From the NCBI GenBank assembly GCA_963678065.2, contig CAXXVZ010000003.1, forward strand, positions 64,001-128,000: a stretch of 64,000 bases of DNA. Reading direction: 5' to 3'. The stretch is from Treponemataceae bacterium. GTDB lineage: Bacteria > Spirochaetota > Spirochaetia > Treponematales > Rectinemataceae. The position numbers were made by a program, and so were the translations under genes. Below the pieces are notes generated by a model. The model made no database searches. It saw only the letters and a list, made by a program, of their open reading frames with translations, and was not told the origin of the DNA. Below, piece by piece: positions 10,280-61,640 of the stretch (positions are counted from its first letter, which is position 1; every line of letters starts with the position of its first letter).

Positions 10280-10819
10280 CTACTTCTTTTTCGTCCGCTT
10301 CGGTCTGGCTGCCGATTTGCCCGGCTTCGCGCGAACAGGAGGCTCGCTCAGCCCGTCATTCTCTTCTTCCCCACAAGGTTTCATGGCTGAGTCGGAAGGT
10401 TCAGCCGCCACGACGGAGGAGTCGGTCGCGATGACCGTGGGCTCTGTCGCCATGACCTCGGCTTCGGCCGCGATGACGGTAGGTTCGGCCTCCATGGCGA
10501 TAGGTTCAGCCGATATAACCGAAGGCTCCGCCGTCATGACTGCAGGCTCCGCCGCTATCACGGTGGGTTCAGCCACCGTGACCAGGGGCACCAGTTCTTT
10601 CTCTTCTTCTTTGTCCTGGGGCGCCACCTTGCGCAAGCCCGCCACCTGGTTCCTGATCTCGAGAAGAAAGGCCCTGCGCTCATTCCGCGCCCTCTCGGCC
10701 TGCCTCTTCTGCACGCTGGAAAAATCTGCCAGCATGGACCTCACGTCATTGGCCAGGTTGGTTTTGTAGGACATCCTTTCCTCGCAGCCGTTTTTCCCCA
10801 TATCAGCCAGCTTACTCAC
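10280..10819 (-). CDS. gvpC: GvpC-like protein with acidic repeat tail
   Basis: Directly after gvpA; NDVRSMLADF...ERRAFL resembles a GvpC repeat; AGGAGA RBS. Confidence 0.6.
   Translation of the reverse strand: MSKLADMGKNGCEERMSYKTNLANDVRSMLADFSSVQKRQAERARNERRAFLLEIRNQVAGLRKVAPQDKEEEKELVPLVTVAEPTVIAAEPAVMTAEPSVISAEPIAMEAEPTVIAAEAEVMATEPTVIATDSSVVAAEPSDSAMKPCGEEENDGLSEPPVRAKPGKSAARPKRTKKK
10395..10574 (-). repeat. Degenerate 21-bp tandem repeat (about 8.5 units, AEPxVxx)
   Basis: AEPTVIA AEPAVMT AEPSVIS AEPIAME AEPTVIA AEAEVMA TEPTVIA TDSSVVA AEPS. Confidence 0.85.
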
Positions 10820-13266: not shown

Positions 13267-13995
13267 TTACTGTGCACCTTCGTGGCCGACTCCTGGCAGG
13301 CAACCGGGGACGGCGAAATTGTAGGGTGGCCACGGGCCGCTGATGAGGGTTCTGCTTCCATCATGCTCAATCACCCGTTGAAAAATTTCCCTGAATCGGT
13401 TGACCTGGCCTTTCGGAATGAGAAAGTACAGAGACAAAACGGTGGAACCGCCCCTCGCGGCCGTCTCTGTCCGGTGCTTGCCGTTCAGCTCCGAAAATGC
13501 CCGGATATACCCATCCAGAAGAGCCTGGTGATGGCGGGAGTTCTCATCCTGCATCTGATAATGCGCCCTCCGCATGGCGAGATATCGGCCACCGTCCACT
13601 GGCTGCACGATCGGTTGTACACTTTGCGGCGATTTCAGTTCCGGTTCAGGAAGCAGGATTCGAATCCCCATCTCGACACGGCCTTCCAGCTCCTTAAGAA
13701 GGGCATCGTACTGTCGATTTTTTTCCTCCAAAATGTGCTGGATTGCCTGCGGCCCCTCCATGAAGCAGCCATAGCGCATGGGGACCACCGCCTGCATGCG
13801 ATGAAGCTCCTCCACCACTCTGCCGTAGACGAGAAGCTCCGAAACAGGCGGCGGCTTTTCCGTGAAAGCCATTTCCGACACGGCGGCGCCCAGCCCGTGA
13901 GCGGTGACAAAGGACACAGCCTTGCCTGTCACCCCCGTCATCAGCCCACCATCGGGCACAGGAGTTCTCATGATGCAATACACCAAGTGGGCCAT
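13267..13995 (-). CDS. GvpF/GvpL-family protein (GvpF3-like)
   Basis: VVPMRYG, EMGIRI, SGPWPPYNF. Confidence 0.88.
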   Translation of the reverse strand: MAHLVYCIMRTPVPDGGLMTGVTGKAVSFVTAHGLGAAVSEMAFTEKPPPVSELLVYGRVVEELHRMQAVVPMRYGCFMEGPQAIQHILEEKNRQYDALLKELEGRVEMGIRILLPEPELKSPQSVQPIVQPVDGGRYLAMRRAHYQMQDENSRHHQALLDGYIRAFSELNGKHRTETAARGGSTVLSLYFLIPKGQVNRFREIFQRVIEHDGSRTLISGPWPPYNFAVPGCLPGVGHEGAQ

Positions 13996-14001
13996 AGGCC
14001 A

Positions 14002-14802
14002 TTATCCCTGCATGTCCAAGACAGGCGTGAAATGGTAGGGAGGCAAGGGGCCGGAGGACTCGAAATGAAGCCCCATGGATTCGTGGCTCGCGTTCCATTC
14101 AGTCGTCATGCGTAGCAGCTGCTCTGCACAATGGTCCGGAACGAGAAGAGCGGCGTGGAAGAACATCTCGTCGCCTCTCCCTGTCAGTTCCGGCGACAGA
14201 AGGCGACGATCGCTGAACGCCGAGGATAGCTCACTGACGGACGTCATTATGTCGTCCGCCAGCCCCTTGAGCCAGGATGTCACCTCACGATCCACCGCCC
14301 CCCGGATTTTCTGTTCCTGAAAGTAGCGAATGCCCGGGGAAAGCTTGGCGAGTTGCTCTTTCCCGGCCGCCAGGCGCGTTTCCAGGATCTGCGATCGGGC
14401 CTGTGGCATGTCCACATATGCCTTGAGGGTCCATTCCTTCTGGCCGGCTGTGCCGAGGAAGAATTTCGACAGGGCGTCCCGATGCCGCTCCAGCGCCGCC
14501 GCCAGCACATCCACGGAAGAAAAAACGCTTCCGAACCGAACGGGCAAGACGGGAGCCTGGCGCATGATCGTCATGATGACCTCTTCATGGCGCAGTGCCC
14601 GGGGCGCCACCCACGCCAGGTCCGCCAGCCTCTCGCGGGCCTCCTGCCCGCAGAATTCCTCCAGGGAAACCGCGGAGAGAACGGCGTTGACATCGGCGAT
14701 GGCCTCGATACAGAGGGGATGCGATTCGTCTATCCCCATTCCCTCGATTTTCAGAAGTGGATTTTTCGGTGTCAGGCAGAACAGGTATATCCCTTGGCTC
14801 AT
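14002..14802 (-). CDS. GvpF/GvpL-family protein (GvpF2-like)
   Basis: YLFCL, RHEEVI, VLPVRFG, SGPLPPYHF. Confidence 0.88.
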   Translation of the reverse strand: MSQGIYLFCLTPKNPLLKIEGMGIDESHPLCIEAIADVNAVLSAVSLEEFCGQEARERLADLAWVAPRALRHEEVIMTIMRQAPVLPVRFGSVFSSVDVLAAALERHRDALSKFFLGTAGQKEWTLKAYVDMPQARSQILETRLAAGKEQLAKLSPGIRYFQEQKIRGAVDREVTSWLKGLADDIMTSVSELSSAFSDRRLLSPELTGRGDEMFFHAALLVPDHCAEQLLRMTTEWNASHESMGLHFESSGPLPPYHFTPVLDMQG

Positions 14803-16937
14803 CCTTGCTCCCCCAGCACGTCGGCTATGGCGTCGTCAATATCCTGACGTTGGATCAGGATTTCCGGTTCTTCCCCTTCGCCCTTCTCCAAGGTTTTCAC
14901 GGCGCGGCGGACTGCCGACATCGCCGCTTTTCGCGCGATAGCGGCGATGTCGGCCCCGCTGAAACCTTCCGTTACCGCGGCGAGTTCCGCGCAGCTGATA
15001 TCTTCCGACAGGGGTTTCTTCCTGAGATGGACGGAGAAGATTTCCTCTCGCTCCTTTTCCTCCGGCATGGTCATCTCGATGATCTCGTCGAAGCGGCCCG
15101 GCCTGAGCACCGCGGCATCCAGCATGTCCCTGCGGTTGGTCGCTCCCAGGACAAGTACACCCCGGAGCTCGTCGATCCCGTCGAACTCCGCCAGAAACTG
15201 ACTCAGGATCCGTTCGGAGACATGAGAGTCCGCGGTTCCGGCGCTCCTCGTCGCCACCAGGGCATCGATTTCGTCGAAGAAGATGATGCACGGCGCCGCC
15301 TGTCGCGCCTTGTGAAAGATTTCCCTGATTCCCTTTTCCGATTCTCCGACCCATTTCGACATCAGGGCGGGCCCTTTGACGGAGATGAAGTTTGTCTGGC
15401 TCTCCGTGGCGATCGCCTTGGCCATCAGGGTCTTGCCGCATCCGGGGGGGCCCACCAAGAGAATTCCCTTGGGCGGGGTCACTCCTCCCTTTTCGAAAAG
15501 TTCGGGGTATTTGAGGGGCCATTCCACGGCCTCGACGAGTCGCTTTTTCAGGCTGTCGAGCCCTCCCACGTTTTCCCAGCGAACATTGGGGGATTCCACG
15601 AAGACTTCCCTGATGGCGGAGGGTTCTATTTCCCGCAGGGCGGCAAGGAAGTCCTCCATCCGCACCTCGAGTTTCGAGAATGTTTCGTAAGGGATAGCCG
15701 CCTGACTGAAATCTATCTCCCCCATGATCTGCCTCAGGCAGATCATGGCGGCCTCCCGGCAGAGAGCCTCGAGATCCGCGCCGACAAAACCGTGGGTGAT
15801 CTCCGACAGATGCTCCATCCGGACATCCCCGGCCAAGGGCATCCCCCGGCTATGGATTTCCAGAATTTCCAGGCGGCCGACCCGGTCCGGGATCGGGATG
15901 ACGATCTCCCGATCAAACCGTCCCGGACGTCGCAGAGCCGGATCAAGGGAATTGGGAATGTTGGTGGCGGCGATGACGATGACATTCTGCCTCTTGTTGA
16001 GGCCGTCCATGAGGGCGAGGAGTTGGGCGACGATCCGCTTTTCCACTTCCCCGACAACATTTTCCCGCGAAGGAGCTATGGCGTCGATTTCGTCGATGAA
16101 CAGGATGCTGGGTTGATTGCTGGTCGCCTCCTCGAAAATCTTCCGCAGGTGGGCCTCGCTTTCGCCGTAAAATTTGTGGACGATTTCCGGTCCGCTGATG
16201 GAAAAGAAGCTGGCCTCCGTTTCGTGGGCTATCGCGCGGGCGATGAGGGTCTTCCCGCAACCCGGCGGGCCGTAAAGAAGCACCCCCCGCGGCGCGTCGA
16301 TCCCGAGGCGCAAGAAGAGCTCAGGATAGCGGAGGGGTAGCTCGATCATCTCGCGGATGCGCTGGAGCTGGGATTTCAACCCGCCGATATCTTCGTAGGA
16401 AAGGGTCTTTCCCCTATCCTCCTCCTGGCTCTTGCCGATCACGAGTACTGTGCCCGGGTGGATGAGGGCCGGACCCTTGGGCGTCACGGATTCGACTTTG
16501 AAATAGGCAGAGCGGCTGCCAAACAGGGCGGCCTGGATTTTTGCGCCCTCCATGACCGGCAGGCCGTCCAGGAGGCTTCCGATGTATTTGAGATCCCGCT
16601 CCGCCGGCACGACGTTGGTCGGCGCCAGGGCGACACGCTCCGCCGGGCGGCAATGGATCTTGCGGATTCTCACGGGTTCATCGAGACCGACGCCCGCGTT
16701 TTCGCGGGTCGAGCCGTCGAGCTGGACCCGCGACTGTCCGCGGAACTCCGCGTAGGCAGGCATGGCCTTGCAGACCGCTTTCCTCTTCCCCTCGACCTCC
16801 ACGATATCGCCGACCGTGATCTGAAGCCTTTCCAGGTCCTCGGGGCCCATGCGGGCGAAAGCCCTTCCGACGTCTTTGGTCAAGGCTTCCGTCACCCGTA
16901 GCTTGACGACAGGCGCCTCATCGTCCTTTGTGGCCAT
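14799..16937 (-). CDS. Cdc48/VCP-type double AAA+ ATPase (GvpZ-like)
   Basis: N domain plus two GPPGCGKT, two DEIDA and two RPGRFD motifs. Confidence 0.93.
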
Positions 16938-32955: not shown

Positions 32956-34140
32956 ATGACTGTCGCAATCACCGGGCATCGAAACGCTTGCCTGTCGGTC
33001 CACATTCCCTATGATCCCCGCCTCATCCGCTCCATCAAAGGAATTCCGGATCGACACTGGGATCCGGAAAGCGGATGCTGGCTTATCCCTGACACCCAAA
33101 GCCACGTCGATAGGCTCCTCATGGTCCTGTACGACACAGGCATGTTCACCGCTCCCGATCCTGAAAAAGCCGGAACTGCCGTTGTCGATCCACTCTTGAA
33201 GCGCTACGAAGAAGCCCTCGACGCGCGCCACTTCAGCCCCCGGACAAAACGCGCTTATACCGCCTGGGTGAACCGCTTTCTTGCGCACTGCGGCGGACGG
33301 CAAGCCGCTTTCCTGGGCGAAACGGAAATCAATGTATTTCTGAGCTTCCTGGCCGTTCATGAAAAAGTGAGTGCATCCACCCAAAACCAGGCTCTTGCCG
33401 CCCTGCTTTTTCTTTACAGGCAGGTCATGGGTCGACGAATCGGCGAACTCGACGAGGTAATCCGGGCAAAAAAGCCGACAAGACTACCCGTCGTGATGAG
33501 CCGCGACGAAGTCAGGGCAGTCCTGTCGAACTTGCGGGGCGACAGATGGCTTGCCGCCGCGCTGATGTATGGCACGGGATTGCGCCTCATGGAATGTCTC
33601 GAACTCAGAGTCCAGGACATAGACTTTGCACGGAACGAAATCCTCGTTCGCAACGGCAAAGGCGCCAAAGACCGAGTCACCATGCTTCCTGAATCGCTGA
33701 AAAAACCACTTCGCGACCATCTGGCCACAGTCAGGGCCATTCACGACCACGACATATCTGAAGGCTGGGGGAACGTGCCCGTACCAAACGCGCTGGACCG
33801 AAAATACCCGAACATCGCCGCAGATTTCCGCTGGCAATGGATTTTCCCCCAGGGACGGCGCTGGACTAACCGCGAAACCGGCCAGCAAGGCAGACACCAC
33901 ATCGACGAATCCCTCGTTCAGAAAGCCGTCCATGAAGCCGTACTCAAAGCCGGTCTGACAAAACGCGCCAGCTGCCACAGTTTCCGCCACTCCTTCGCCA
34001 CCCAACTCCTGGAAAACGGCTACGACATACGCACCGTCCAGGAACTCCTGGGCCACAGCGACGTCAAAACAACGATGATCTACACTCACGTACTGAACCG
34101 CGGCCCTTCGGCGGTCCGCAGTCCCGTCGACGGCCTTTGA
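32956..34140 (+). CDS. intI: Integron integrase
   Basis: [21 protein letters not shown], IntI-specific ALDRKYP...WQWIFP...RHH segment, [22 protein letters not shown]. Confidence 0.97.
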
Positions 34141-39147: not shown

Positions 39148-41554
39148 ATGAAATGCTTTGTAATAATGCCATTTGCAAAAGAATTTGATCTAGTAAAAGA
39201 AGCAATAAAGACAGGCGTAACGAATACAAACAATATTTTCTATAGAGCTGATGAGGACTATAGGTCGGGAAAAGTCACAGAACAAATATGTAAAATGATT
39301 GATGAGTGCGATATTTGTATATGTGATATTACTAAAAATAATCCTAATGTAATATGGGAACTGGGGTATGCATACTCAAAAGAAAAAAGAATAATATTAC
39401 TTGTTCAAGATACAAAAGAAATATTTTTCAATATTAAAATTGAAAGAACAATAATCTATAATCTAGATAACATTAAAAATACTCTAATTCAGCATTTGGA
39501 AATATTTCTCACTAATATAGCTATAGATATTAGCAATCAACCAATAGAAGAATATTTTGAAAAAAATAAATACAATGGTTATAGTAAAATTATTGGATCA
39601 CCACATATAGATAATACTCCATTTAGTTATTTTAGTGAGGCTTTTTCAAAACTTCGTAATCCGCTTTGTAAAAAAGCGAGTTATTGTAACTGAAGCTTCG
39701 TTTTTGCACAGTAAAAATTACATGTGCAGTAAAAAGGGCTCTCTTTTCAGTGCAAAAGATGGACTACCCCTACAAAATCCGGTTCTGCCGGATTGCCCGG
39801 TTACGATTTCTGCAGTTCGGGAAGGATGAAGTACTGCAAAGCCTTGACGGCCGCCAGAACCACTACCCCGCACATGAGCAGGAATGATACTTTCTCAAAT
39901 CCCCGTACAAATATCTGACCCGGTATGAGCCAATCCTTCAAATGCGAGTTTGCACGTTCAACCGTTGTCCTGATTGTGTACCGCTCCTTCTGTGACGGCG
40001 AAAATGGTTCCCGTTCCGTCCCACGACGCGTATTCCGATCAATCAGCGGAACACGCCCACGTCCCTGGATATAGGTCGCGATGGGATCCGCATCGTATGC
40101 AGCGTCCATGACTGAATACAGATGTCGGACCTTTTTCTCTGTTATCTTTTCCAGAGGAATCGCTACTTGCGAATCATGAACATTGGCGCCGGTTACGACT
40201 GCTGAAATAGGGAATCCTGTGTCGCTGACATCAAGGTGCAACTTGTATCCTTTCCATGTTTCCCTATTCCCCTGGCTGTTCTTCTTGCATCCCCATGCAC
40301 AGTCTTTGGATAGTTCTGACAAGGATTTCCTGACGCTTTGGCCGACTTGCTTTTCTATCTGTGTCGGCTCCTTCACAGGCCGAACTTCTCCTTTTCGGGG
40401 ACGACCTCGTTTCCGTTGCGGTGTCACGGAAGAAACAGCTTCACGTTTGGCAGGTACAGGTTTTTCTCGTGCTCGTATCTCCGTCGCATCCCGATTTATG
40501 TGTCCGACGATATGGCCGTCATGACAATCCTTCACCATGGTATTCAAAGTCTGAATCAGCGGAGTCTTTTTTGAAAACTCCGCGTAGCGACGCGAAAAGG
40601 TCGCAGAGCTTGGAACGGAGGTGAAGCCGCATATCCTCCGCAGATTCGGATCGTTGATCAGCCTGTTCCTAAGGTCCGTGACTGTCGCTATGTGGAATAC
40701 CGTTCGGGCGAAAAACGCCCGCATGATCGGTTCGTTCCGATGTGGAGGACGGCCAGTCCGTGCACATGGTGATGTAATCCGTGGCTGAGCATCTTCAATG
40801 ACTCTGAGCAGGGCGATAAAAAAGCGATGCTCGTCGGTGAGATATTCTTCGAAACATCGCTGGATATCGTAGGAAATCGGCAAAAGTATTTGCGCTCCGC
40901 CCAGTATTTCTGGTATGGTTTTCATCAGCGGGGGCTCCTCCTGGTGACGTTTGTGTTGCAACATCATCATACAGGTTCTGTCCCCGCTTTTCATTAAAAT
41001 TCGTTCATCTCATGACTTTTGAAAGAGCCTCTAGTATTAAAAAATTTGTTAAAAGGCATATATTTATAGCTGCTCAAGATCATTATTTCTTAACTAAAAA
41101 TGAAAATAGGGAGAAGTATAAGAATAGTATTTTAGATTTTTTAATTGGAAATCCTGAAAGAAAAGTTGATATTATGATTACAGATGAAAGAATTAAGAAT
41201 AGATATTCTCATAAAACATGGCAATATGTTACCGCAGATAGATTTATTACTGACTTAAATGATGCAATTCAATTTTATCAAGAATTGATTATTTATTATG
41301 ATAATATTAAAGGTAAAAAAGGAACTTTATCAATACATAAAGTAACATTTATTCCTATTACTATTAGCTTTATTGACCCGGAAGAAGAAAATGGATTTCT
41401 TATACTTTCACCAAATGCTTATGAAGATGAAGGTATGAAGAGACCATTCTATGCGTTTTCAAAAAAAAGAAATGAAGAGATGTTTATTGAATATTGGTCT
41501 CCATACAAGAAAAAATATGAAGAAATAAAAGATAGTAATATTTTAGAAAAATAG
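39148..41554 (+). pseudogene. Cassette 6: nucleoside deoxyribosyltransferase/TIR-like N-domain protein split by an IS
   Basis: CFVIMPF, DITKNNPNVIWELGYA; removing the IS and one TAGT joins 39636 to 41036 in frame (~335 aa). Confidence 0.85.
39637..41031 (-). mobile_element. IS5/IS1182-like insertion sequence, 1395 bp
   Basis: TIR GAGGCTTTTTCAAAA / TTTTGAAAGAGCCTC; TAGT duplication; DDE transposase 39801-40925. Confidence 0.92.
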
Positions 41555-48614: not shown

Positions 48615-49907
48615 TAAAGTGCGCCTAATCGTCAATACAGAAAAAAAGAAAAATAAGGTGGATCCCAATTTGTCCTTGTATTCATGAATTTCTATGCTGC
48701 CAGCCGTAGGCTGAAGCATCGGTTATACACCTCATCCGGTGTAGCATACTCAAGGGACTGATGAAATCGTTCCTGGTTGAAGAAATTGAAGTATTTGTCG
48801 ACGGCGGTCTTTAGTTCCACGAGCGATTCGTACGAGTTCAGGTAAATTTCTTCGTACTTCAGTGACCTCCAGGTCCGCTCGATATAGATGTTGTCCAAAG
48901 CCCGGTTGACGCCATCCATGCTGATCTGGATTCCTTTGGCTTCAAGAACCGAGACAAACGCCTCGGATGTGAACTGGCTCCCTTGGTCGGTGTTGAAGAT
49001 CCCGGGAGTCCCGTGTACGGTAAGGGCTTCTTCCAGAGCATCGATGCAGAATCCTACATCCATCGTATTCGAGATTCGCCACGACAGAACTTTCCGTGAA
49101 AACAGGTCGATAATCGCCACGAGATAGACATGAGACCCATTCACCTTCAGGTAGGTCACATCCGTTGCCCAGACATGGTTCGCTATCCATATTTTCTTGT
49201 CTCGCAATAAATACGGGTACTTCTTGTGGTGTTTCGACGGTTTCGATAGATTCTTGCCGGGAAAGAGAGCCTTGAGTCCTGCCCGCTTCATGATCCGCCT
49301 GACCTGCTTGCGGGTGACCTTCATATCCTTCAAGGCACAGGCCATCCGCCGGTATCCATAGAACGGATGCTTGTTCAATTCTTCGAGAATTGCCGTGAGT
49401 ACGGCCATCCCCCACTCGTCATCCATCTTTACTGATGTGTAGTAATACGCCGATCTGCTGATTCCCAACAGTTCACATTGCGTGATGATCGGCAGATCCT
49501 GATTGTCGGGTTCTACAAGTTCGGCTCGCTCCCGTACACCTGTCGGTACTTTTTTTTTAGAAACGCATTCTCGACCTGGAGTTGCCCAATCTGCTTGAAG
49601 AGCTCGTCCTGCTTCTCTTGGGCTACTTCTGCTTCCTTGTCCTTCCCTGATCTTTCAAAGAGCGTGGCTACTTGATCGACCACATGCTTTTTCCATTGGG
49701 CAATCTGATTCGGATGCACTCCATAGATTTGGGACAGTTCCTGAAGGGTTTTCTCGTTCCGGACTGCTTCCATGGCCACTTTGGCCTTGAAGCTGGTGTC
49801 GTAGCTTTTGCGCATGGTGTACTCTATGCCTCCCGTATCTTTTTTTACAAGGAGGAATGTCACCTTATTTCCCTTTGTTTCCTGTCTGATTTCTTGGGCT
49901 CATTATA
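48615..49907 (-). mobile_element. IS3-family element, 1293 bp
   Basis: ~46 bp imperfect TIRs; CCC duplication; orfA 49513-49815; orfB DDE ending at 48692; A9G slippery run 49550-49558. Confidence 0.92.
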
Positions 49908-50012
49908 CCCAACACCTGCTTCAACCTTATAAAGCCTTTTGTCATGGTTTTTGCAAAACAACAATGCAAAAACCACGCCAATCCTTCGCTTCGCTCAGGC
50001 CAGGCTTTAAAG

Positions 50013-51447
50013 ATATTATGAGTATACGATCTTGAGGGAGGAAACGAAGAAAGGTAACATTGGAATTGTACGGAAGTAGAAGGAAGATGAAGGTTGGGCT
50101 TAACCTGGGACACAGAGCCCGATTGCAGATTAACCAGCCTTCTTCGGACAATCCCTTGGGATCGTTTTTAAATCGACGAAAACCCGGATAGAAGTATGAA
50201 GGCCTACTACTTGTTTCCAAGATAGAGGCTTCGATTCTGCCTGATACTTCTGGTGTACAATACGGGGGAGGATGGAGATGACCGAAAAGGAAAGGATCAC
50301 CAACGTCAGTGAATGTGAAGAAATCGAGGCGAGTTATTATGGCATCGATCTTCATAAGGATCAAATAACCTGGCATTGCATCGATCGGACATCGAAGGGG
50401 ATTTTGGTTCGTAGAACAGGGAAGATATTGACGGATCGTATCCATGAGGATTTCATTCCGATGCTGCGCAAGGAAAAATGCTATGTAATCGTGGAAGCCT
50501 CCGGGTCAACTTTTTTCTTCCACAGCCTGATACAAAGCCACTGCACGAAGGCGATCATCGTCAATCCATCTGCTTTCCGGGAACTGTATATGACCGGGAA
50601 AAAGACAGACCGGATCGACGCGAAGAAATTGGCTGACCGGCTGATGTACCACATAGAGATGGAGGACGGCGACGATGGATTTCCCGAAGTATTTGTTCCG
50701 GACGAGGAAGCCCTGAAGATCCGCAAACTGGTAACAACCTATGAATTATTGGTTAAGCAGATTACCCAGGCAAAGAACCAAGTGAAGGCCATCTTCCGTT
50801 CAAAAATAATTAATGTCGATGTAGACGTGTTGGATAATGGACTGGAAATAGCCCTACAAAATGTGAGCCTGGACAACGCGGACAAAATTATCGTTCGGTC
50901 GCTCAAAGGATTGTACGATACTTTGTGTCGCGAGAAACAGACCATCAAGGAAGCGATACTCTCCATAGGAGTACGCCGATTTCGAGACGAAATAGCGCTT
51001 CTCACCAGTATATCAGGAGTAAGCATCATCGGGTCGATTGTCTTCATGTCAGATATAGTAACTGTAGGACGCTTTGATTCCGCCAAGAAGTTGACATCCT
51101 ATTTGGCCAGCGTCGGAAAGGTAGACGCATCGGGAAATACTACGAAGAACGGCGGACTCAACAAACGTGGAAGGCGAACCTCGTACCGTTTCATCCTGCA
51201 AGGCCTTGAACATATAGTCAATGGTAACGAAGGGTTCCAGCGATTCAGGGCAAGGCATGCCTCGAAGCGATCAAACAAAATAAGGGCGGCAATTGTACGC
51301 AAGACCTTTGTCACGATGTATTACATGTTAAAGAATCATGACATGTACCGTTTTCTGAATAAATCCATCTATACTCGGAAAATAAGGGAACTGAACAAGA
51401 TCAAAAAAATAATTGAAAAAGCGGCTTGACGGATTTTCTCATAGAAG
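50013..51447 (+). mobile_element. IS110/IS1111-family element, 1435 bp
   Basis: Recombinase 50272-51429 with GIDLHK, VEASG, KTDRIDA, ASG; AAG core on both sides; ATGAG/CTCAT subterminal IR. Confidence 0.92.
50026..50265 (+). ncRNA. Candidate bridge/seek RNA
   Basis: ~250 bp non-coding end behind a junction promoter; contains GCTTAACCT (complement of the target) and ATAGAAG (donor junction); ends approximate. Confidence 0.6.
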
Positions 51448-53263: not shown

Positions 53264-53703
53264 TGGGAACTGACAGTCTGATGGACGATCTACATTCGGC
53301 AATTGTGGTTGCTCAAACGGGTGACCATTCTGAAGCACGGCGACTGTTCACCGAAATTGTACCGCGTTTAGGGGACGACGCAGGAAAGAACTGCATTCTG
53401 GCTCACTATATGGCCGACGTTCAGGATAGCGTTGCAGATGAACTACTTTGGGACCTGAGGTCACTACATCACCTCAAACAGGTGACCGAGGACCAAATTG
53501 AGGTGCTTGGCTCATCCCTGAGGACAAAAGGGTTCTATGCATCAATCTACTTGAACATCGCTAACTGCTACATGAAACTCGGAGAACGGGACCAACTAAT
53601 CAAGTATCTTGACCTTGCGGATGCCAGTTGTGATTTGCTGGACCAGGACGAATACGGAAACTTCATTCGAAGTAGAGTTGCCCTATTGCGTAGTAGAACA
53701 TGA
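53263..53703 (+). CDS. Cassette 12 gene 2: TPR-like hypothetical protein
   Basis: TGATG coupling to gene 1; LAHYMADVQD, FYASIYLNIANCY. Confidence 0.65.
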   Translation: MGTDSLMDDLHSAIVVAQTGDHSEARRLFTEIVPRLGDDAGKNCILAHYMADVQDSVADELLWDLRSLHHLKQVTEDQIEVLGSSLRTKGFYASIYLNIANCYMKLGERDQLIKYLDLADASCDLLDQDEYGNFIRSRVALLRSRT

Positions 53704-53817
53704 ACCTAACATTGTTTTCAACCTGACGGCGCCCTTTGGCATGTAATTTGATATAGGATATCAAATTGCATGCCAATCGCTTCGCGAACGGGCTTGCAGG
53801 TTAAAACAGCGTTAGAA
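53704..53817 (+). repeat. attC12 (divergent type)
   Basis: ACCTAAC-5-TTTCAACC...GGTTAAA-5-GTTAGAA. Confidence 0.88.
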
Positions 53818-54120
53818 TGACTAAAGCATACCGATAGAGAGAAAGGATTTGAGGTGAAGAAGAGCTGCGCAAAGAGACCGTGGAAAAGCCGCCTGAAAGA
53901 ACTCTCTATGCGTTCGCAGAAAAAGGCGGCGGGAGAACGGTCGAAGAGCGCAGCAAGACTTAGAAAAATGGGAATAAGAGATCACACCGAGAGGTTTGCT
54001 GGTACGAAGAGCGTCGCGAGGAACCGTCCCAGGAGCGCGCAGTCGCGCGCACGAGAATGGGACGGCGAAAAAAGCGCCGCAAGATTGTGGCGACAGATGA
54101 CTGTTGTTCTAACAACTGCT

Positions 54121-56039
54121 GTGTGCCACGAAATCTGATGGGCACTTTTGAATAGTGATTCAGGAGGTGTCATAAGAGCTGTACGACAGATGAGGAAACA
54201 CCGGGGTAGCTGGTGTGAGCCTCGGGATCTGCTTGCAGGAGCCGGTCTCAAACCGCCAGAAGCTGCTTGGATAAAGAGTCCCGGTGGTGAACGTATCTGG
54301 TTAAAAGGCCCCCGCATGACGGGGTCAGGTGTGGTATCAGGAGGCGAACGAAAGTGAACCGACCGATGAGGTGTCGAAAGTGAGTTTGATGAGGTCAAAA
54401 GCAGTGATTAGCTAGTGCGCTGTGAAAAGAGTCCATCGGGAAACCTGTGTACTGGGTGGACGGCCTCCGGCATTAAGGCGGCGTGAATTGATACTGGGCT
54501 GTTGTATGGAACGTGGGAACCTGTCGTTCCGATGTGAAGGGAGAACCTCAAGCGGCGAACCCGACGAGAGGGAGAGTACCGATGCGGAGCACAGGGACGT
54601 CGCCAGGATGGCGCCGGCTCGTAGTAGTGATGAAGTTCCTGTAACGGGAATGGAGCGAAGGGGCCGACATACTCGTGTCTTTTCTGAACGCCAACTGGCG
54701 ACAGGATGAACGGATGGGAAAGGCAAAACCGTTTGACATACCGAAGCGACTCGTATGGAAGGCATACCAGCGTGTACGGGCGAACGATGGGGCGGCGGGG
54801 ATCGATGGACAGACGCTTGAGAAGTTTGACGGGAAGCTCTCGAAGAATCTCTACAAGCTCTGGAACCGGATGTCCTCGGGCAGCTATCATCCAGACCCAG
54901 TGAAGAGGGTGGAGATTCCGAAGAAGAGCGGAGGAACGCGAGTGTTGGGAATACCGACAGTCGCGGATCGAATCGCGCAAATGACCGCGCGGTTGTGTTT
55001 CGAGCCCATGGTGGAGCCAGGGTTCCATGACGATTCCTACGGATATCGACCGGGGAAATCAGCCCACCAGGCCGTGGCGAAAGCCCGGGAACGGTGCTGG
55101 AAATACGACTGGGTCATCGATCTGGACATCAAGGGATTCTTTGATACCATCGAGTGGGAGCTCATGATGAAGGCGGTGGCGTTTCACAAGCCGCCCGAGT
55201 GGGTTCGGCTGTATATCGAGCGATGGCTCAGAGCCCCGGCAAAGGATGACGCGGGAACGATCATTGAGAGGGATACGGGAACGCCGCAGGGTGGGGTGAT
55301 AAGCCCGCTGCTGGCGAATCTGTTTCTGCAGTACGCCTTCGACATGTGGATGGAACGGAGACACGGGGGAAACCCTTTCGAGCGCTATGCTGACGACATC
55401 GTCAACCACTGCCGGACACAGGCGGAGGCAGAAAATCTCCTCGAAGAGATCAAGCTGCGATTGGCCGAGTGCAAGCTGACGGTACATCCGGAGAAGACGA
55501 AGATCGTGTATTGCAAGGATCGGAACCGTAGGGGAGACTATGAAAGGACCGAGTTTGACTTCCTCGGCTTCACCTTCAGGCCGCGCACGGCGAGGGGGAA
55601 GAACGGGAAGCTCTTCGTGGCCTTTACCCCGGCGATCAGCAGAAAATCCGAGCAGGCGATCAAGGACACGATCCGGACGTGGCGAATCCAGAGGGCGGCG
55701 ACAGCGACCCTCGAAAGTTTGTCGAAACTGTACAACTCGAAGCTTGCGGGATGGTTTGCCTACTACGGGAGATTTCGGCCATCGGCAATGTACGGAATCT
55801 TGTGCATGTTCCAGAAAATCCTCGTAAAATGGGCAAAGTGCACATACAAGCGCCTGAAGAGGAGCTGGCTGAAGGCCGCCGAACTCATGAAGAATGCAGC
55901 TGACAACAAGAAGCACTTGTTCATTCACTGGGAGCATGGATGATATGCCAATGGTAGAGTGTGAAGAGCCGTATGATGGGAGACTATCACGTACGGTTCC
56001 GTGAGAGGCTGGGGGTGAAAATCCCCCGGCCTACTCGAC
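54121..56039 (+). mobile_element. Full-length group II intron (RmInt1-like, bacterial class D/IIB)
   Basis: GTGTG start; DV GAGCCGTATG...CACGTACGGTTC at 55966-55999; ...CTACTCGAC end; precise removal restores attC. Confidence 0.92.
54714..55943 (+). CDS. ltrA: Intron-encoded reverse transcriptase/maturase, no endonuclease domain
   Basis: NLYKLWNRMSSGSY, LGIPTVADR, GTPQGG, RYADD, FDFLG, LFIHW. Confidence 0.95.
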   Translation: MGKAKPFDIPKRLVWKAYQRVRANDGAAGIDGQTLEKFDGKLSKNLYKLWNRMSSGSYHPDPVKRVEIPKKSGGTRVLGIPTVADRIAQMTARLCFEPMVEPGFHDDSYGYRPGKSAHQAVAKARERCWKYDWVIDLDIKGFFDTIEWELMMKAVAFHKPPEWVRLYIERWLRAPAKDDAGTIIERDTGTPQGGVISPLLANLFLQYAFDMWMERRHGGNPFERYADDIVNHCRTQAEAENLLEEIKLRLAECKLTVHPEKTKIVYCKDRNRRGDYERTEFDFLGFTFRPRTARGKNGKLFVAFTPAISRKSEQAIKDTIRTWRIQRAATATLESLSKLYNSKLAGWFAYYGRFRPSAMYGILCMFQKILVKWAKCTYKRLKRSWLKAAELMKNAADNKKHLFIHWEHG

Positions 56040-56180
56040 TCAACCTTACAAATCCTTTGGCATGGTTCTTGCGAAAGATTACGCAAGAACCATGCCAAGC
56101 CCTACGGGCACGGATTTAAAGGTTAAGCGAATGTTAGCCGGACGCCGAATCTATTCACACCAATAAGGAGATTTCCCGAA

Positions 56181-56927
56181 ATGGACATTCCACGGATCTT
56201 CAACATCACCGAAAGTGCTCACCGCATCCATAATCCGTTCACACCCGAAAAGCTCGCCACTCTCGGCGCGGCGCTACGTCTGGAAACGGGGACCCGAGTG
56301 CTCGACCTCGGCAGCGGTTCGGGGGAGATGCTGTGCACCTGGGCACGTGATTACGGAGTCATCGGCACCGGCATCGACATGAGCCAGTTGTTCACCGAGC
56401 AAGCGAAACTCCGTGCTGTAGAACTCGGCGTCGCCGATCAAGTCAAGTTCATCCATGGCGATGCTTCCGGCTATGTCTCTGACGAGAAGGCCAGCGTGGC
56501 AGCCTGTGTCGGTGCCACTTGGATCGCCGGGGGAGTCATCGGCACTATCGAGCTTCTGGCGCGGAGCCTGTGCACCGGAGGGATCATCCTCATCGGCGAG
56601 CCCTACTGGCGGCAGTTACCGCCGACGGAAGATGTTGCCAAGGGGTGTCTTGCCAACTCAATCTCCGATTTTCTCATGCTTCCAGAACTTCTCGCGTCTT
56701 TCAGCCATTTTGGCTACGACGTCGTTGAAATGGTTCTGGCTGACCAAGACGGCTGGGACAGATACGAGGCGGCCAAATGGCTCACCATGCGCCGATGGCT
56801 TGAAGCCAATCCTGACGACGAGTTCGCGAAAGATGTTCGAGCCAAACTGACCTCGGAGCCCGAGCGCTACGCCACTTACACGCGTGAATACCTGGGCTGG
56901 GGTGTGTTCGCGCTGATGCCGCGGTGA
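56181..56927 (+). CDS. Cassette 14: class I SAM methyltransferase
   Basis: VLDLGSGSGE, GID, HGDA, IGEPYW; GC-richer than most cassettes. Confidence 0.88.
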   Translation: MDIPRIFNITESAHRIHNPFTPEKLATLGAALRLETGTRVLDLGSGSGEMLCTWARDYGVIGTGIDMSQLFTEQAKLRAVELGVADQVKFIHGDASGYVSDEKASVAACVGATWIAGGVIGTIELLARSLCTGGIILIGEPYWRQLPPTEDVAKGCLANSISDFLMLPELLASFSHFGYDVVEMVLADQDGWDRYEAAKWLTMRRWLEANPDDEFAKDVRAKLTSEPERYATYTREYLGWGVFALMPR

Positions 56928-57078
56928 TGCGTTAGCGCATCCGGCGGATCGTCAACGGCTGTGCCGCGCAACAGCTGGTGGCTCGTCACAATGTGATTGC
57001 GCCTGAATTCATTTCTTATGGTCTGGTTATCCATGCAATCAACAGAAAGGCCTGTCTCAGGCAGGCCTAACAATTCAT

Positions 57079-57306
57079 GTGTGCCACGAGATCTGATGGG
57101 CACCTTTGAATGGAGATTCAGGAGGTGTCATAGGAGCTATGCGACAGATGAGGAACCATTTTCGCAAGGAAACGGGAGCCTCTGGATCTGCTTGTAGGGG
57201 CCGGTCTCAAACCGCCAGAAGCTGCTTGGATAAAGAGTCGACGAGAGGGAGAGTACCGATGCGGAGCACAGGGGCGTCGCCAGGATGGCGCCGGCTCGTA
57301 GTAGTG
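57079..57306 (+). mobile_element. Group II intron 5' remnant with internal deletion
   Basis: Aligns to 54121-54280, then 54563-54629; follows GCCTAACAATTCAT. Confidence 0.88.
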
Positions 57307-57559
57307 GCGCTGCCGGAAAACAGGGTAGTAGCTGTTTTGGGTTTTGTGGATTCTGGCGGAACAAGGCGAAAGCCTGGATTTTCCGCGCAGATTTCCGCAT
57401 TCCCCGAAATGACAGTTCCTAACAGTCGGGGGGTGATGCCACCAGTTGTCATGATGGGGGAGTATATCGCGGGAATCGGGGCGAGCAACGGGAGGAGGGA
57501 TTCGTCGTCGGCTTGCCTTGACAAGGGAAAGCATGGCGACCCATGCTTCATGCTCCACT

Positions 57560-58495
57560 ATGAAAATCGATAGGCTCCTGTCCATCGTCGTCTACCTTCT
57601 CAACCGTGATCTGGTGAGCGCGAGCGCACTGGCGAAACGTTTCGGCGTTTCGGTTCGGACGATTCAGAGGGACATGGAAGCAATCGATCTGGCAGGCATT
57701 CCGGTGATCAGCGTCCAGGGGCCGTCGGGCGGCTACGGCATCATGGACGGCTATAAGATGGATCGGCGCTTGGTGACCGTGGACGACCTCTTCTTCATCA
57801 TCACCGCGCTACGCGGCATCGAAGATTCGCTGGACGACCGCCGGATAGGCGACGCCTTGGAGAAGATGCGTGGGCTATTGCCGTCGGCGAACGATAATGG
57901 ATTCAAGGACAGGGAAGAGAAACTCCATATCGATTTCAGCATGCTCGGAGGCGGGCCGGACCAGCGGCGGGTATTCAAGACCGTTCAAGAGGCCGTGAAC
58001 TCGGGTCGGCTTCTTAAGATGGACTACACCAATAACCGGTTGGAACGCGAGTCGCGGATCGTGGAACCGATGACGATCGTGTTCCAGTGGCGCTCGTGGT
58101 ACCTGTTCGCCTATTGCCGCCTCCGAGAAGGGTACCGGCTCTTCCGGATTTCGCGGATTAGGGAGCCGAAGATCCTGGACGAACGCTTCCGGCGGCGGAA
58201 TTACGGTTACGAGGAGTTTTCCCGGGAGAACGATCCGGAGCGGACGGGGAACGTCGTGGAACTGACCCTGAAATTCTCAGGCCGGATGGTCCCAGTGGTG
58301 GAAGAGTTCTACAACAAGGAAGACTTGGAACGAACGGCGGACGGCGGCCTTATCGCCAAAACGCGTATGCCCGAGGACGGTTGGATGTACGGCTATATCT
58401 TGAGCTACGGAGCCTTCGTGGAAGTGCTCGACCCCCCCCATATCCGGGACATCATAAAGTCCGCCGCCCGGCACATTCTGCGAATATACGAATAA
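57560..58495 (+). CDS. YafY-type HTH-WYL transcription factor
   Basis: MKIDRLLSI, VSVRTIQRD, GGY, RIVEP, WYLFAYC, FRISRI. Confidence 0.92.
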   Translation: MKIDRLLSIVVYLLNRDLVSASALAKRFGVSVRTIQRDMEAIDLAGIPVISVQGPSGGYGIMDGYKMDRRLVTVDDLFFIITALRGIEDSLDDRRIGDALEKMRGLLPSANDNGFKDREEKLHIDFSMLGGGPDQRRVFKTVQEAVNSGRLLKMDYTNNRLERESRIVEPMTIVFQWRSWYLFAYCRLREGYRLFRISRIREPKILDERFRRRNYGYEEFSRENDPERTGNVVELTLKFSGRMVPVVEEFYNKEDLERTADGGLIAKTRMPEDGWMYGYILSYGAFVEVLDPPHIRDIIKSAARHILRIYE

Positions 58496-58508
58496 TTGTT
58501 TTTATCCC

Positions 58509-58524
58509 CGACATACAGGTGTCG
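58509..58524 (+). promoter_or_regulatory. Palindromic putative WYL operator
   Basis: CGACA-6 nt-TGTCG between the WYL and GyrI genes. Confidence 0.55.
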
Positions 58525-58571
58525 TATACCCTATGCGATGATCGGTCTATCAATCGATTACGGAGGTATTT

Positions 58572-59024
58572 ATGCAGATCATTGAAAGGAAGGAAACACC
58601 CGTCCTATCCGTCCGCTACAGGACGCCGGCGGCGGAACTGCCGAACAGCATGGGCCGGATTTACGGGGAGATCGCGATGTACATGGGTAAGAGCGGCATT
58701 CCCTTCGCCGGACCGCCTTTCGCAATGTACTACAACATGGACATGAACGACCTGGACGTGGAGATCGGGTTTCCGTTGGCCAAGGCCGCGGTCGGCGAAG
58801 GACGGATCGCGGCAGGCAAGCTGCCGGGAGGCTCCTTCGCGACGGCCAAGCATACAGGTCCATACACGACCATTGAGGCGACGTACAACGCGCTGACAGC
58901 CTTCGTGAAGGACAAAGACGTCCAGATGGAAACCTTCATGTTCGAGGAATACCTCAATTCGCCCGAGGATACTCCGCCTGAAAAGCTTGAGACGGTGATC
59001 TACTTCCCGTTGAAAAGGGCCTGA
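58572..59024 (+). CDS. GyrI-like small-molecule binding protein
   Basis: GPPFAMY, VEIGFP, HTGPY, EEYLNSP, ETVIYFP. Confidence 0.88.
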   Translation: MQIIERKETPVLSVRYRTPAAELPNSMGRIYGEIAMYMGKSGIPFAGPPFAMYYNMDMNDLDVEIGFPLAKAAVGEGRIAAGKLPGGSFATAKHTGPYTTIEATYNALTAFVKDKDVQMETFMFEEYLNSPEDTPPEKLETVIYFPLKRA

Positions 59025-59402
59025 AAACGGGGCCGACCGCTTCCAGCACCCGGCAAAGGCCGGATGCAGCGGCGGTCGGCCAATCCGGGGAGCGCCCATG
59101 TACGCGTAGGACAACCGAATACCCCTTCGAATTCCTCAAGAACCCGGAAGAACCGATATTTTGGGGGAGCATAACGTTGCAGCGCTTTTCAAATAGGAAC
59201 TGCGAAATCATACTGAACAAGCTTTAAACTTCCGACGCACCTGTTTCCAGCAGCAACATCAAGGACGCACCCAATATTTTACGAAAGACCATCACCGAGG
59301 GGTGAGATATGATCAATTGTTGTGGACAGGGGAATAGGAAACGGACGTTCATTTCCGGTAGGGTTTTGTCGCCAAACGAAACCACCGAAAGGGAGAACGT
59401 CC

Positions 59403-60463
59403 GTGCGACAGACTACAATCAAGCCTCAAAATGATGCAATGCCCGAAACCATGCTGGTGCTGGAAGCCCTCATACGAGAGGGAGCCCGAAAACTGCTCCA
59501 TGCAGCATTGGAAGATGAAATCGAAGCGCATCTTGCCCGGTATCGTGATCTGAAAGACACAAACGAGAGACAGTGTGTGGTGAGAAACGGATACCAGCCG
59601 GAACGGACAGTCCTCACGGGAGCAGGACCCATTCCGGTCAAGCGTCCACGGGTAGACGACAGGATATTGGCAAAAACAGGCGACGAGCGTTTCACAAGTA
59701 CGATATTGCCGAAGTTTATGAGACGGGCGGCGAGCATCGATTCCCTCGTACCTGCGCTGTACCTGAAAGGGATTTCCACCGATGATTTTCCGACAGCCTT
59801 GGAGGCAATCCTGGGTCCACAGGCAAAGGGGCTTTCAGCAACCACGGTAGTACGGCTGAAAGAAGTGTGGACCGATGAATACGAGGAATGGAATAAGCGG
59901 GATGTGAGCGGGAAGCGATATGTGTCCATCTGGGCCGATGGGGTGTACTGCTCTGCACGGCTCGAAGATGAACGATCCTGCTTTCTGGTTATCATGGGCG
60001 CTGATTCATTCGGTAAAAAGGAATTGCTTGCTGTTTCCGACGGTTTCAGGGAAAGCGCGCAGTCCTGGAGAGAGCTTCTTCTCGGCCTTCGCTCTAGGGG
60101 ACTTGTCCACGTACCTTCCCTTGCTGTCTGTGACGGTGCCATGGGATTCCAGGCGGCGGCTGCGGAAGTATGGCCGGAAACAAGAATCCAACGCTGCTGG
60201 TTCCATAAGTCCGGCAATGTCGTGGATACGCTGCCCAGTTCTATCCAGGCAAAGGCCAAGGACATGCTCCACGACCAGTATCTCGCGCCGACGAAAGAGG
60301 ACGCGCTCAAGGCTTTCAGCCTGTTCATTGAAACATTCGGAGCCAAATATCCGAAAGCGGTGGAATGCTTGACAAAGGACAAGGACGACCTGTTCGCCTT
60401 CTACGATTTTCCTGCTGCCCATTGGGTACATATTCGGACGACGAATCCTATTGAATCGACATT
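59403..60463 (+). pseudogene. IS256-family transposase, 3'-truncated
   Basis: RNGY, LYLKGIST, WADG, DGFRES, QRCWFHK, RTTNPIEST, then a break. Confidence 0.88.
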
Positions 60464-60612
60464 ACCAATGTCATCAAGGCTCAGTCGACTCTTTTCGCCC
60501 ATTGGGAGTGGGGGGGTACGGTACAGGCAGAATATGAAGAGCCGTATGAATCAAGAGATTCACGTACGGTTCCGTGAGGGGCTGAGGGTGAGATTTCCTC
60601 GGCCCACTCGAC
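60464..60612 (+). mobile_element. Group II intron 3' remnant (IEP tail, DV, DVI)
   Basis: Alternative frame LFAHWE; DV at 60539-60572; ends CCACTCGAC; followed by attC body. Confidence 0.88.
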
Positions 60613-60708
60613 CTTATTAATCCTTTGCCATGGTTCTTGCGAGAAGATCACGCAAGAACCATGCCAAGCCCTTCGGACACGGATTTAAAGGTTAAGCCAA
60701 TGTTAGAA
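60613..60708 (+). repeat. 3' part of attC14
   Basis: CTTATTAATCC...GGATTTAAAGGTTAAGCCAATGTTAGAA. Confidence 0.88.
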
Positions 60709-60745
60709 GGACACCGCTCACGCGGCGCAAAAGGAGAGCAAAAAC

Positions 60746-61573
60746 ATGAAACAAGAATATAAAGCGGATCTAGATAGTATATTGGCAACACAAAACATTA
60801 ATGGTGGAGAATATTGGTCAACATCAGACGGTGGAATAGCAAAAGGTGTTCCGTTTTCAACATTGGAAGCAGGAATGATGCTTTATGAAATAGGTTATGA
60901 TAATCAAAGTAAAGAAATAAAAGGAATAGCAGATTTAATACTTAAGAACATCAGAGAAGATGGACGGATTAAAGTATATCCATCTGGAACAATATACCCT
61001 TGCCAAACCTCGAATGCAGCAAGAACACTTTCTTGCTTGGGATATTCACGTGATCAAAGATTAGATGCATCGTATTCATATTTCTTGAAAACCCAACAAC
61101 CAGATGGCGGATGGCGCTGCAATGCCTCGAAATTCGGGAATGGTCCTGAAACAAAGTTCTCAAACCCAGGTCCAACATTAACAATACTTGACGTGTTTCG
61201 ATTTACAAAACATCTCAATATTGATGAACAATTAGATAATGCTGTAGAATTCTTATTGAAACATTGGGAAACGAAACTTCCACTCGGTCCTTGCCATTAT
61301 GGAATTGGCACACTATTTATGAAAATTGAGTTTCCAATGGTTAGATATAACGTATTTCATTATGTGTATACATTGTCTTTTTATGATAAAGCAAAAAGAG
61401 ATCCGAGATTCCTTGAAGCGCTAAAAGTGATAACAGACAAATTAGTAAATGATAAAATTGTTACAGAAAGCACAAATAAGAAACTATCAAAGTATGTGTT
61501 TTGCATGACAAATGTCCCGAATGCAATTGCAACAGCGCATTATAATGAGATAGTTGAAAACCTGGAAAAATGA
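60746..61573 (+). CDS. Cassette 15: prenyltransferase/squalene-cyclase-repeat protein
   Basis: QQPDGGWRC, GPCHYGIGTLF, RYNVFHYVYTLS. Confidence 0.7.
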   Translation: MKQEYKADLDSILATQNINGGEYWSTSDGGIAKGVPFSTLEAGMMLYEIGYDNQSKEIKGIADLILKNIREDGRIKVYPSGTIYPCQTSNAARTLSCLGYSRDQRLDASYSYFLKTQQPDGGWRCNASKFGNGPETKFSNPGPTLTILDVFRFTKHLNIDEQLDNAVEFLLKHWETKLPLGPCHYGIGTLFMKIEFPMVRYNVFHYVYTLSFYDKAKRDPRFLEALKVITDKLVNDKIVTESTNKKLSKYVFCMTNVPNAIATAHYNEIVENLEK

Positions 61574-61592
61574 GTTTCTTCTAACACCTGCT

Positions 61593-61640
61593 GTGTGCCA
61601 CGAAATCAGATGGGCACTTTTGAATGCTGATTCAGGAGGT
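61593..61640 (+). mobile_element. 48-bp group II intron 5' stub in truncated attC15
   Basis: TTCTAACACCTGCT | GTGTGCCACGAAATCAGATGGGCAC...CAGGAGGT. Confidence 0.85.

Follow-up and report, generated by a model that had tools for sequence, protein, structure and literature searches.

In this study, we examined 64,000 nucleotides (nt) of a Treponemataceae bacterium (Rectinemataceae, Spirochaetota; assembly GCA_963678065.2, contig CAXXVZ010000003.1, positions 64,001 to 128,000 of the forward strand; hereafter the window), in which group II introns interrupt the attC sites of an integron cassette array at one and the same nucleotide. Our findings make it probable that an endonuclease-less class D intron (ribozyme type IIB, RmInt1-type) homes to the left arm of attC on the top strand, and this is the best explanation of the data as a whole. 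The system is a variant of attC-homing and class D introns that are already known, and is comparatively well supported.

Introns at One Base of attC

Intron 5' ends with the sequence GTGTGCCAC begin at 54121, 57079, and 61593, in each case 7 nt past the AAC of an R'' box and two bases into L'' (register +7), on the top strand and in the sense of the cassettes. The R'' boxes concerned start at 54107, 57065, and 61579, and the 7-mers between TAAC and intron differ (AACTGCT, AATTCAT, and ACCTGCT, respectively). The original prediction, drawn from the sequence of the window, had described this position, orientation, and variable flank, all of which we confirm at the three junctions; its three introns are three 5' ends, of which the first belongs to a whole copy and the other two to 5' remnants. 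By chance, TAAC would stand at one fixed offset with a probability of 0.005 per junction, or about 1e-7 for three.

The complete intron (copy 1; 54121–56039, + strand, 1919 nt; Rfam RF01999 at 54217–54330, RF00029 at 55964–56039) is framed by the two halves of the attC that it invaded. The 5' half (54107–54120, +) holds R'' (54107–54113), a 5-nt spacer, and the first 2 nt of L''; the 3' half (56040–56139, +) holds the rest of L'', L' (56121–56127), and R' (56133–56139). Excision in silico restores a canonical 114-nt attC, with L''/L' matching at 7/7 positions, 5-nt spacers, and a bottom-strand fold of −37.7 kcal/mol. A full-length copy, 94.7% identical, lies in another array of the same genome (C5:775412–773494). 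Both copies carry an extra short hairpin right after domain I (54595–54620 in the window), absent from relatives and from the contigs of sequencing run X6. The intron-encoded protein (IEP; 54714–55943, +, 409 aa) comprises reverse transcriptase (RT) and maturase (TIGR04416, 418 bits; YADD at 55386). It ends 7 residues short of that of the C5 copy, at a stop where the latter reads Trp; because the tail at the IEP's C-terminus bears on splicing in RmInt1 (PMC3035460), copy 1 may be impaired.

Copy 2 (57065–57306, +) consists of R'' plus 7 nt (57065–57078) and a 5' remnant in which intron nt 1–160 are joined to nt 442–509, the region of the exon-binding sites (EBS) being gone; in the domain I tree it groups with a copy at C3:849865 (ultrafast bootstrap, UFBoot, 100). 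The attC that it entered (57072–57078), after a methyltransferase cassette, offers 8/13 pairs. This attC starts like the aadA-type attC of class 1 integrons, so the intron probably entered a foreign cassette site. Copy 3 (61579–61640, +) is R'' plus 7 nt and a 48-nt 5' remnant (intron nt 1–48), which closes the array ahead of the groEL terminator. Another class D intron is represented by an orphan 3' end (60470–60708, +) that comprises an IEP tail, domains V and VI (D5–D6, 60537–60612; RF00029), and then the attC remainder from register +12, with R' at 60702–60708. Since the flank after 60612 starts 5 nt further into attC than the +7 register, neither the assignment of this D5–D6 to copy 2 nor a single interrupted intron spanning 57079–60612 is supported.

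Assignment to Class D

Judged by the RT tree, the AGC triad, and the layout of EBS1, EBS2, and EBS3, the intron is class D, RmInt1-like (IIB3), and not IIC. The IEP is 50.7% identical to an RmInt1-type IEP of a Sinorhizobium meliloti plasmid (L281), versus about 35% to other classes, and contains the Pfam domains RVT_1 and GIIM only, with no C-terminal endonuclease. In IEP trees of 124, 53, and 17 proteins, with seven (or three) class C references, the +7 intron sits with class D, in a well-supported clade of its own, and class C is severed by a long, fully supported branch (100/100; Shimodaira–Hasegawa-like approximate likelihood ratio test, 100). These references were recognized by their flanks and are all of terminator type, with no IIC-attC protein among them, and classes A, B, E, and F were without labelled references; the IIC-attC group falls inside class C (PMC3001079). 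Holding the +7 IEPs next to class C is not rejected (approximately unbiased test, p-AU 0.295), a result that touches the root of the tree, not class membership. D5 bears the AGC triad and D6 ends in AY (RF00029 alignment). The published landmarks of RmInt1 (PMC3123198) are present in L281 (EBS1 from 267, after δ G266; EBS3, G329; δ', C227), and G266, C227, and G329 map by alignment onto the window intron. Of the traits of IIC-attC introns, namely a class C IEP, antisense insertion on the bottom strand at TTGT/T in R'', and a CGC triad without EBS2, none was found; an EBS2 segment is present and covaries in relatives. The resemblance to class D that the original prediction had read from an endonuclease-less IEP thus proved correct. 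Its proposal of an independent attC-homing lineage stands for an origin apart from IIC-attC and for the +7 register in four genomes of three genera; it is to be qualified for more than one register and for three close relatives outside attC. Introns in genomes of the host's class match others that bear the labels Alkalispirochaeta and Oceanispirochaeta, and a search of plasmids gave no close relative (best IEP, 56% over full length). At least 120 class D IEPs, listed without flanks, fall at 57–90% identity.

The +7 Register across Genomes

In a family-level census of 69 genomes, 10 matched the 5' 600 nt of the intron and 7 had a readable 5' junction, four of them at attC +7 and three (G063, G064, and G019) outside attC. 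The +7 junctions number 11: five in the genome holding the window (G000), three in G024, two in G085, and one in G083. The two that G000 has outside the window include the 5' end of the complete C5 copy. All six genomic 3' exons assigned to +7 begin TCAA[C/G]C (G028 yielded a 3' end only), and 7/10 complete elements, pooled with those of a related clade at +12/+13 described below, restore a canonical attC. The motif TAACA-N5-TTCRASC occurs 13 times in the genome, always at the start of an attC. Among distant class D introns (about 50–60% IEP identity; junctions chosen automatically), TAAC stood at +7, +12, or +13 in 0/92 distinct 5' junctions; a phylum-wide pattern search matched 16/401 genomes, and 0/17 matches outside G000 were introns. 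Additional short-word matches, six from G024 and G083 together and a single one from G074, were discarded as chance. In G085 (L223, contig C44), two introns of 710–712 nt without an open reading frame (ORF), at 13822–14531 and 15299–16010, occupy consecutive attC sites beside an IntI; their EBS region is identical and their first ~150 nt differ.

Exon Recognition

Aligning 13 introns, with the RmInt1 landmarks and δ–δ', located EBS1, EBS2, EBS3, and the δ–δ' pair in domain I; standard pairing holds in 98.8% of the cells for Id stem, Id3 stem, and δ–δ', against 19–48% in slid controls. EBS1 (AGCTAGT, 54410–54416, +) lies in the 11-nt loop of the Id3 hairpin (54401–54423, +; stem 54401–54406/54418–54423), also present in the minimum free energy fold, and makes 4/7 in-register pairs with AACTGCT, the intron-binding site (IBS) 1 at 54114–54120 (+). 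EBS2 (GTGAG, 54380–54384, +) probably matches the CTAAC in R'' (IBS2, 54109–54113, +; −8 to −12) with 4/5 pairs, a register that we infer, and the +1 T that opens the 3' exon is the partner of EBS3 (A at 54475, +, in the column of RmInt1 G329). δ' (G at 54370, +, aligned to RmInt1 C227) wobbles with δ U54409; the pair is kept in 12/13 rows, and the C3:849865 copy, like contigs of three runs, has an A at δ'. The insertion point thus falls between nt 2 and 3 of L'', with EBS1 opposite the 5-nt spacer and two L'' bases and EBS2 opposite R''. The EBS1 loop of the original prediction (54407–54417) was the right one; its bulged pairing is rejected, since alignment to RmInt1 and δ–δ' set the in-register reading. 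The AGCAGT that it noted at 54400–54405 does overlap the stem, all six pairs of which changed on both sides across the 13 introns, and is rejected as EBS1, since δ fixes the register. The whole-domain fold was no more stable than shuffles (z −0.91).

Individual EBS1 sequences of the +7 clade pair at 4–6 of 7 positions, in register and without a bulge. The five variants agree in their first bases and in their final T and diverge in the middle; on the attC side there is no variation at −11 to −7 and almost none at −1, a pattern that matches the variation of EBS1. EBS2 stands opposite R'' in 5/5 cores read, with 4/5 pairs, or 5/5 in one fragment of G024. The spacer at 61586–61592 is perfectly complementary to the EBS1 of G085.

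Several observations weigh against homing as proposed here. Over the +7 clade EBS1 makes 24/35 pairs, with a permutation mean of 24.8, and does not track its own site, and RmInt1 needs near-complete EBS1 pairing (PMC4075523). The best fit of EBS2, at −8 to −12, departs by one nt from the spacing in RmInt1 and includes a conserved central mismatch. The site at 54121 scores 9/13 pairs with the window EBS set, a level attained at 215,114 of the genome's 10.5 million strand positions, so base pairing alone is insufficient for site choice; the role of the IEP in +7 target choice is one that we infer. A 15-nt remnant in the same genome (C4:118170) lies at +8, and the 3' flank in a single contig from run X12 does not resemble attC. 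Neither splicing nor mobility was seen, the contigs of four sequencing runs holding no joint that skips the intron, and GC skew gave no replication direction in this assembly.

The extra determinant of the +7 clade is most likely the IEP, reading the invariant flanks; the RmInt1 IEP likewise reads distal exon bases (PMC4075523). It seems unlikely that the ribonucleoprotein (RNP) recognizes instead a folded top-strand attC whose unpaired spacer makes up the greater part of IBS1 and whose fold sets the register, in the manner of the hairpin used by IIC-attC introns. This reading develops a suggestion of the original prediction, namely that targeting might rest in part on attC structure. Such assistance by structure would agree with the exact +7 position at 11 junctions despite varied spacers, with the coincidence of IBS1 and the unpaired spacer, with the lack of covariation between EBS1 and site in this clade, and with the AATTCAT site, which pairs at only 8/13 positions with the EBS set of the window or of the C3:849865 copy. 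Yet folding would hide IBS2 (R'') and IBS3 (L''), and the sequence motif alone selects only attC sites in the genome (13/13), so the hairpin is not needed to explain the data. Moreover, the +12/+13 clade pairs with L'', hidden in a folded attC, and its register shifts with EBS1, and G019, which shares its EBS2 with the +7 clade and is placed nearest to that clade by the domain I tree, sits in a coding region.

A Related Clade and the Number of Origins

Two orphan 3' ends in this genome, one of them that at 60612, continue into attC sequence 5 nt further on. A search with L112, a metagenome intron 64% identical, matched 16/401 class-level genomes, and a search with one of these matched 5/291 at phylum level. 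The resulting clade has 15 5' junctions, 11 with TAAC at +12 or +13; of the remaining four, two fall at +12 counted from a variant R'' (variant boxes occur in G237 and at one L112 junction), another falls at +13 within a hairpin whose core is non-canonical, and that of G908 falls at +7. Complete members in G442 and G991 rebuild a canonical attC. Here EBS1 follows its own sites (57/63 pairs; permutation mean 42.1; 1/100000 shuffles as high, kin not being independent). In G908, EBS1 pairs at 6/7 positions, which argues that pairing, not a fixed ruler, sets its position; this intron groups with the +12 introns and was removed from the +7 count. The hairpin of G820, with a GAAT/ATTC core, was not counted as a canonical attC. 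It houses the outer intron of a twintron (L309, 9069–5330, minus strand), in which a class D intron is inserted just past the YADD codons of the RT gene of the +13-clade intron. G237 has one ORF-less copy of ~670 nt.

The window orphan (60470–60708) is itself too short for placement; a parallel orphan IEP tail at C3:823426 is 62% identical to the +12 IEP of L112 and 51% to the window IEP, so this genome hosted both clades, and the array probably did too. In the domain I tree, UFBoot is 94 for the +7 group and 97 for the +12/+13 group, and the non-attC introns of G063 and G019 join +7 at 100; the IEP tree also sets non-attC relatives nearer to the +7 group. One clade of all attC introns is not rejected (p-AU 0.212), and by these sequences the attC left arm may have been colonized once or twice. 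We put forward, tentatively, an account with two colonizations by spirochete class D introns, in which the +12/+13 clade would retune EBS1 to the L'' of its host and the +7 clade would largely abandon EBS1 specificity, the RT protein or the top-strand fold reading attC; the latter would be a generalist that enters foreign cassettes, rides integron traffic, is expressed from array transcripts, and fuses cassettes.

Related class D introns at L031 (Alkalispirochaeta alkalica, 1808), L318 (G937, 2261), and L226 (G064, 48) are inserted at the very ends of genes that encode either a caspase domain or an Lcl C-terminal domain, for which L318 passes the Pfam cut-off and L031 falls just short. L031 and L318 have upstream words in common and insertions 4 nt apart, and their EBS changes match; such gene ends may be another repeat-family target with a sliding register.

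It appears highly improbable that these are ordinary, loosely specific class D introns whose excess in attC comes from purging elsewhere or from integrase copying of intron-bearing cassettes. The introns of G063, G064, G019, and Alkalispirochaeta all lie outside attC and most copies are decayed, which counts for this reading; but no two junctions have the preceding cassette gene or the spacer in common, hence separate insertions, and purging cannot yield a single-base register. Nor would it place EBS2 opposite R'' in all five +7 cores or let EBS1 follow L'' in the +12/+13 clade.

A Model of Homing and Its Effect on the Array

In the homing model that we favor, the intron would be transcribed along with the array and spliced, and its RNP would reverse-splice into the single-stranded top strand at the replication fork, the nascent lagging strand serving as primer as in RmInt1. 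Because the attC spacer varies, pairing in the +7 clade would be confined to the conserved bases, with mismatches at −4 to −6 accepted, and recognition of the invariant flanks, TAACA and TCAA, would probably fall to the IEP. An array would offer dozens of intergenic targets, which also move between genomes. RmInt1 reverse-splices mainly into the lagging-strand template (PMC8914252; PMC3035460). In sedentary integrons the attC bottom strand belongs to the leading-strand template in 25/30 cases (PMC5371416), and therefore the top strand to the lagging template, which would explain the choice of the top strand. The intron lies just past the end of a cassette, in sense, so that array transcripts could carry it, and separates R'' from the remaining attC. 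With R'' split from L''/L'/R' by 1.9 kb, recombination there should be blocked, and two cassettes would be fused because the invaded attC cannot fold. ORF-less copies may be relics or may be mobilized in trans. As for expression, the single listed RNA run contained 0.05 of the search words, and a promoter scan of 53600–56300 gave 2 sites versus 1.2 expected.

Integron Setting

The integron is recognized by an integrase gene and by attC sites with R''/L''/L'/R' boxes, 5-nt spacers, and one extrahelical base in L'', an architecture seen both in rebuilt sites and in empty sites of the array. IntI (32956–34140, +; TIGR02249, 450 bits vs. a cut-off of 265) is the sole copy in the genome at E<1e-20 and is encoded on the strand of the cassettes; the array lies downstream, co-oriented, and 12 empty attC sites were scored within the window. 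TIGR02249 integrases above the cut-off also stand beside the intron loci of G085 and G083. Copy 1 is followed by the S-adenosylmethionine-dependent methyltransferase cassette gene (56181–56927, +; weak NCBIfam methyltransferase matches, every one below cut-off). Between the intron remnants are a gene pair for a WYL-domain regulator and a GyrI-like protein (57560–59024, +; Pfam) and a truncated IS256 (59305–60462, +), 98.7% identical to a copy at C3:1312093–1313249; the last cassette gene (60746–61573, +; 275 aa) has no family match.

Other features of the array include an Avs4 anti-phage nuclease (43269–47936; 1555 aa, NF041815 above cut-off) in a single 4.8-kb cassette and an IS110-family element (49910–51445) that breaks an attC close to its L' end. 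Further insertion sequences are an IS3 (48692–49863) and an IS1182/IS5-like element (39801–40994). A 21-nt tandem repeat with at least 8 copies (10398–10586) is probably coding. Elsewhere in the genome there are more attC clusters, without a second integrase gene (C3:2358753–2370573, C3:854487, C2:660750, and C5:762000–786000), and three terminator-type IIC introns (C3:980356–981105, C4:589178–589927, and another on C4), none in attC.

Relation to Known Systems and Significance

In Thermosynechococcus, ORF-less group II introns (TeI3) are reportedly moved in trans. ORF-less copies occur here too (two in G085, one in G237); unlike TeI3 they belong to an attC-homing class D lineage. With RmInt1 of Sinorhizobium meliloti, which has a class D IEP and a IIB3 ribozyme (PMC3035460, PMC3123198, PMC4075523), the intron shares the lack of an endonuclease, the AGC triad, the level of IEP identity given above, the layout of domain I (EBS1 of 7 nt after δ, EBS2, EBS3), and a home in a repeated, mobile, non-essential target. 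The target itself differs, ISRm2011-2 in RmInt1 and the attC left arm here, as do the tolerance of 1–3 EBS1 mismatches in the +7 clade and its EBS2 pairing at −8 to −12. Like IIC-attC introns (S.ma.I2, Kl.pn.I3; PMC3001079, PMC7923331), the present one occupies a fixed base of attC, cuts a gene off from a working attC, and lacks an endonuclease. Those are class C, however, insert into the bottom strand at TTGT/T in R'', antisense to the cassettes, make no use of EBS2, and rely on an upstream hairpin, whereas here a class D intron with EBS2 enters the top strand, in sense, within L''. IIC-attC introns also oppose and impede array transcripts (PMC3001079). Other introns in arrays that are not IIC-attC and run in sense to the cassettes have been described, namely the IIB introns UHB.I2 (CL1) and H.ha.F1/F2 (class E) and a top-strand IIC intron of Enterobacter cloacae (PMC7923331); these have other IEP classes, are single or truncated, and lie just past an attC with poorly conserved exons, and the part of that paper drawn on here describes no class D intron, no fixed register in L'', and no covariation of EBS and attC. 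In a review, insertion into attC is held to be a speciality of class C, all other lineages homing to single sites (PMC4424553). Our literature search, which returned IIC-attC work and one paper on IIB introns in arrays (PMC7923331) and covered freely available sources in part, gave no class D lineage with fixed attC registers.

Overall, an RmInt1-type lineage probably homes to the repeat family of attC sites, in three registers and on the strand opposite to that of IIC-attC introns, and provides a natural series for how EBS pairing, flank reading by the IEP, and DNA structure share target choice. For the integron, it would add a route to attC inactivation and cassette fusion that leaves cassette transcription unblocked. 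If the fork model holds, IIB introns on the top strand should favor arrays oriented opposite to those favored by IIC introns on the bottom strand.

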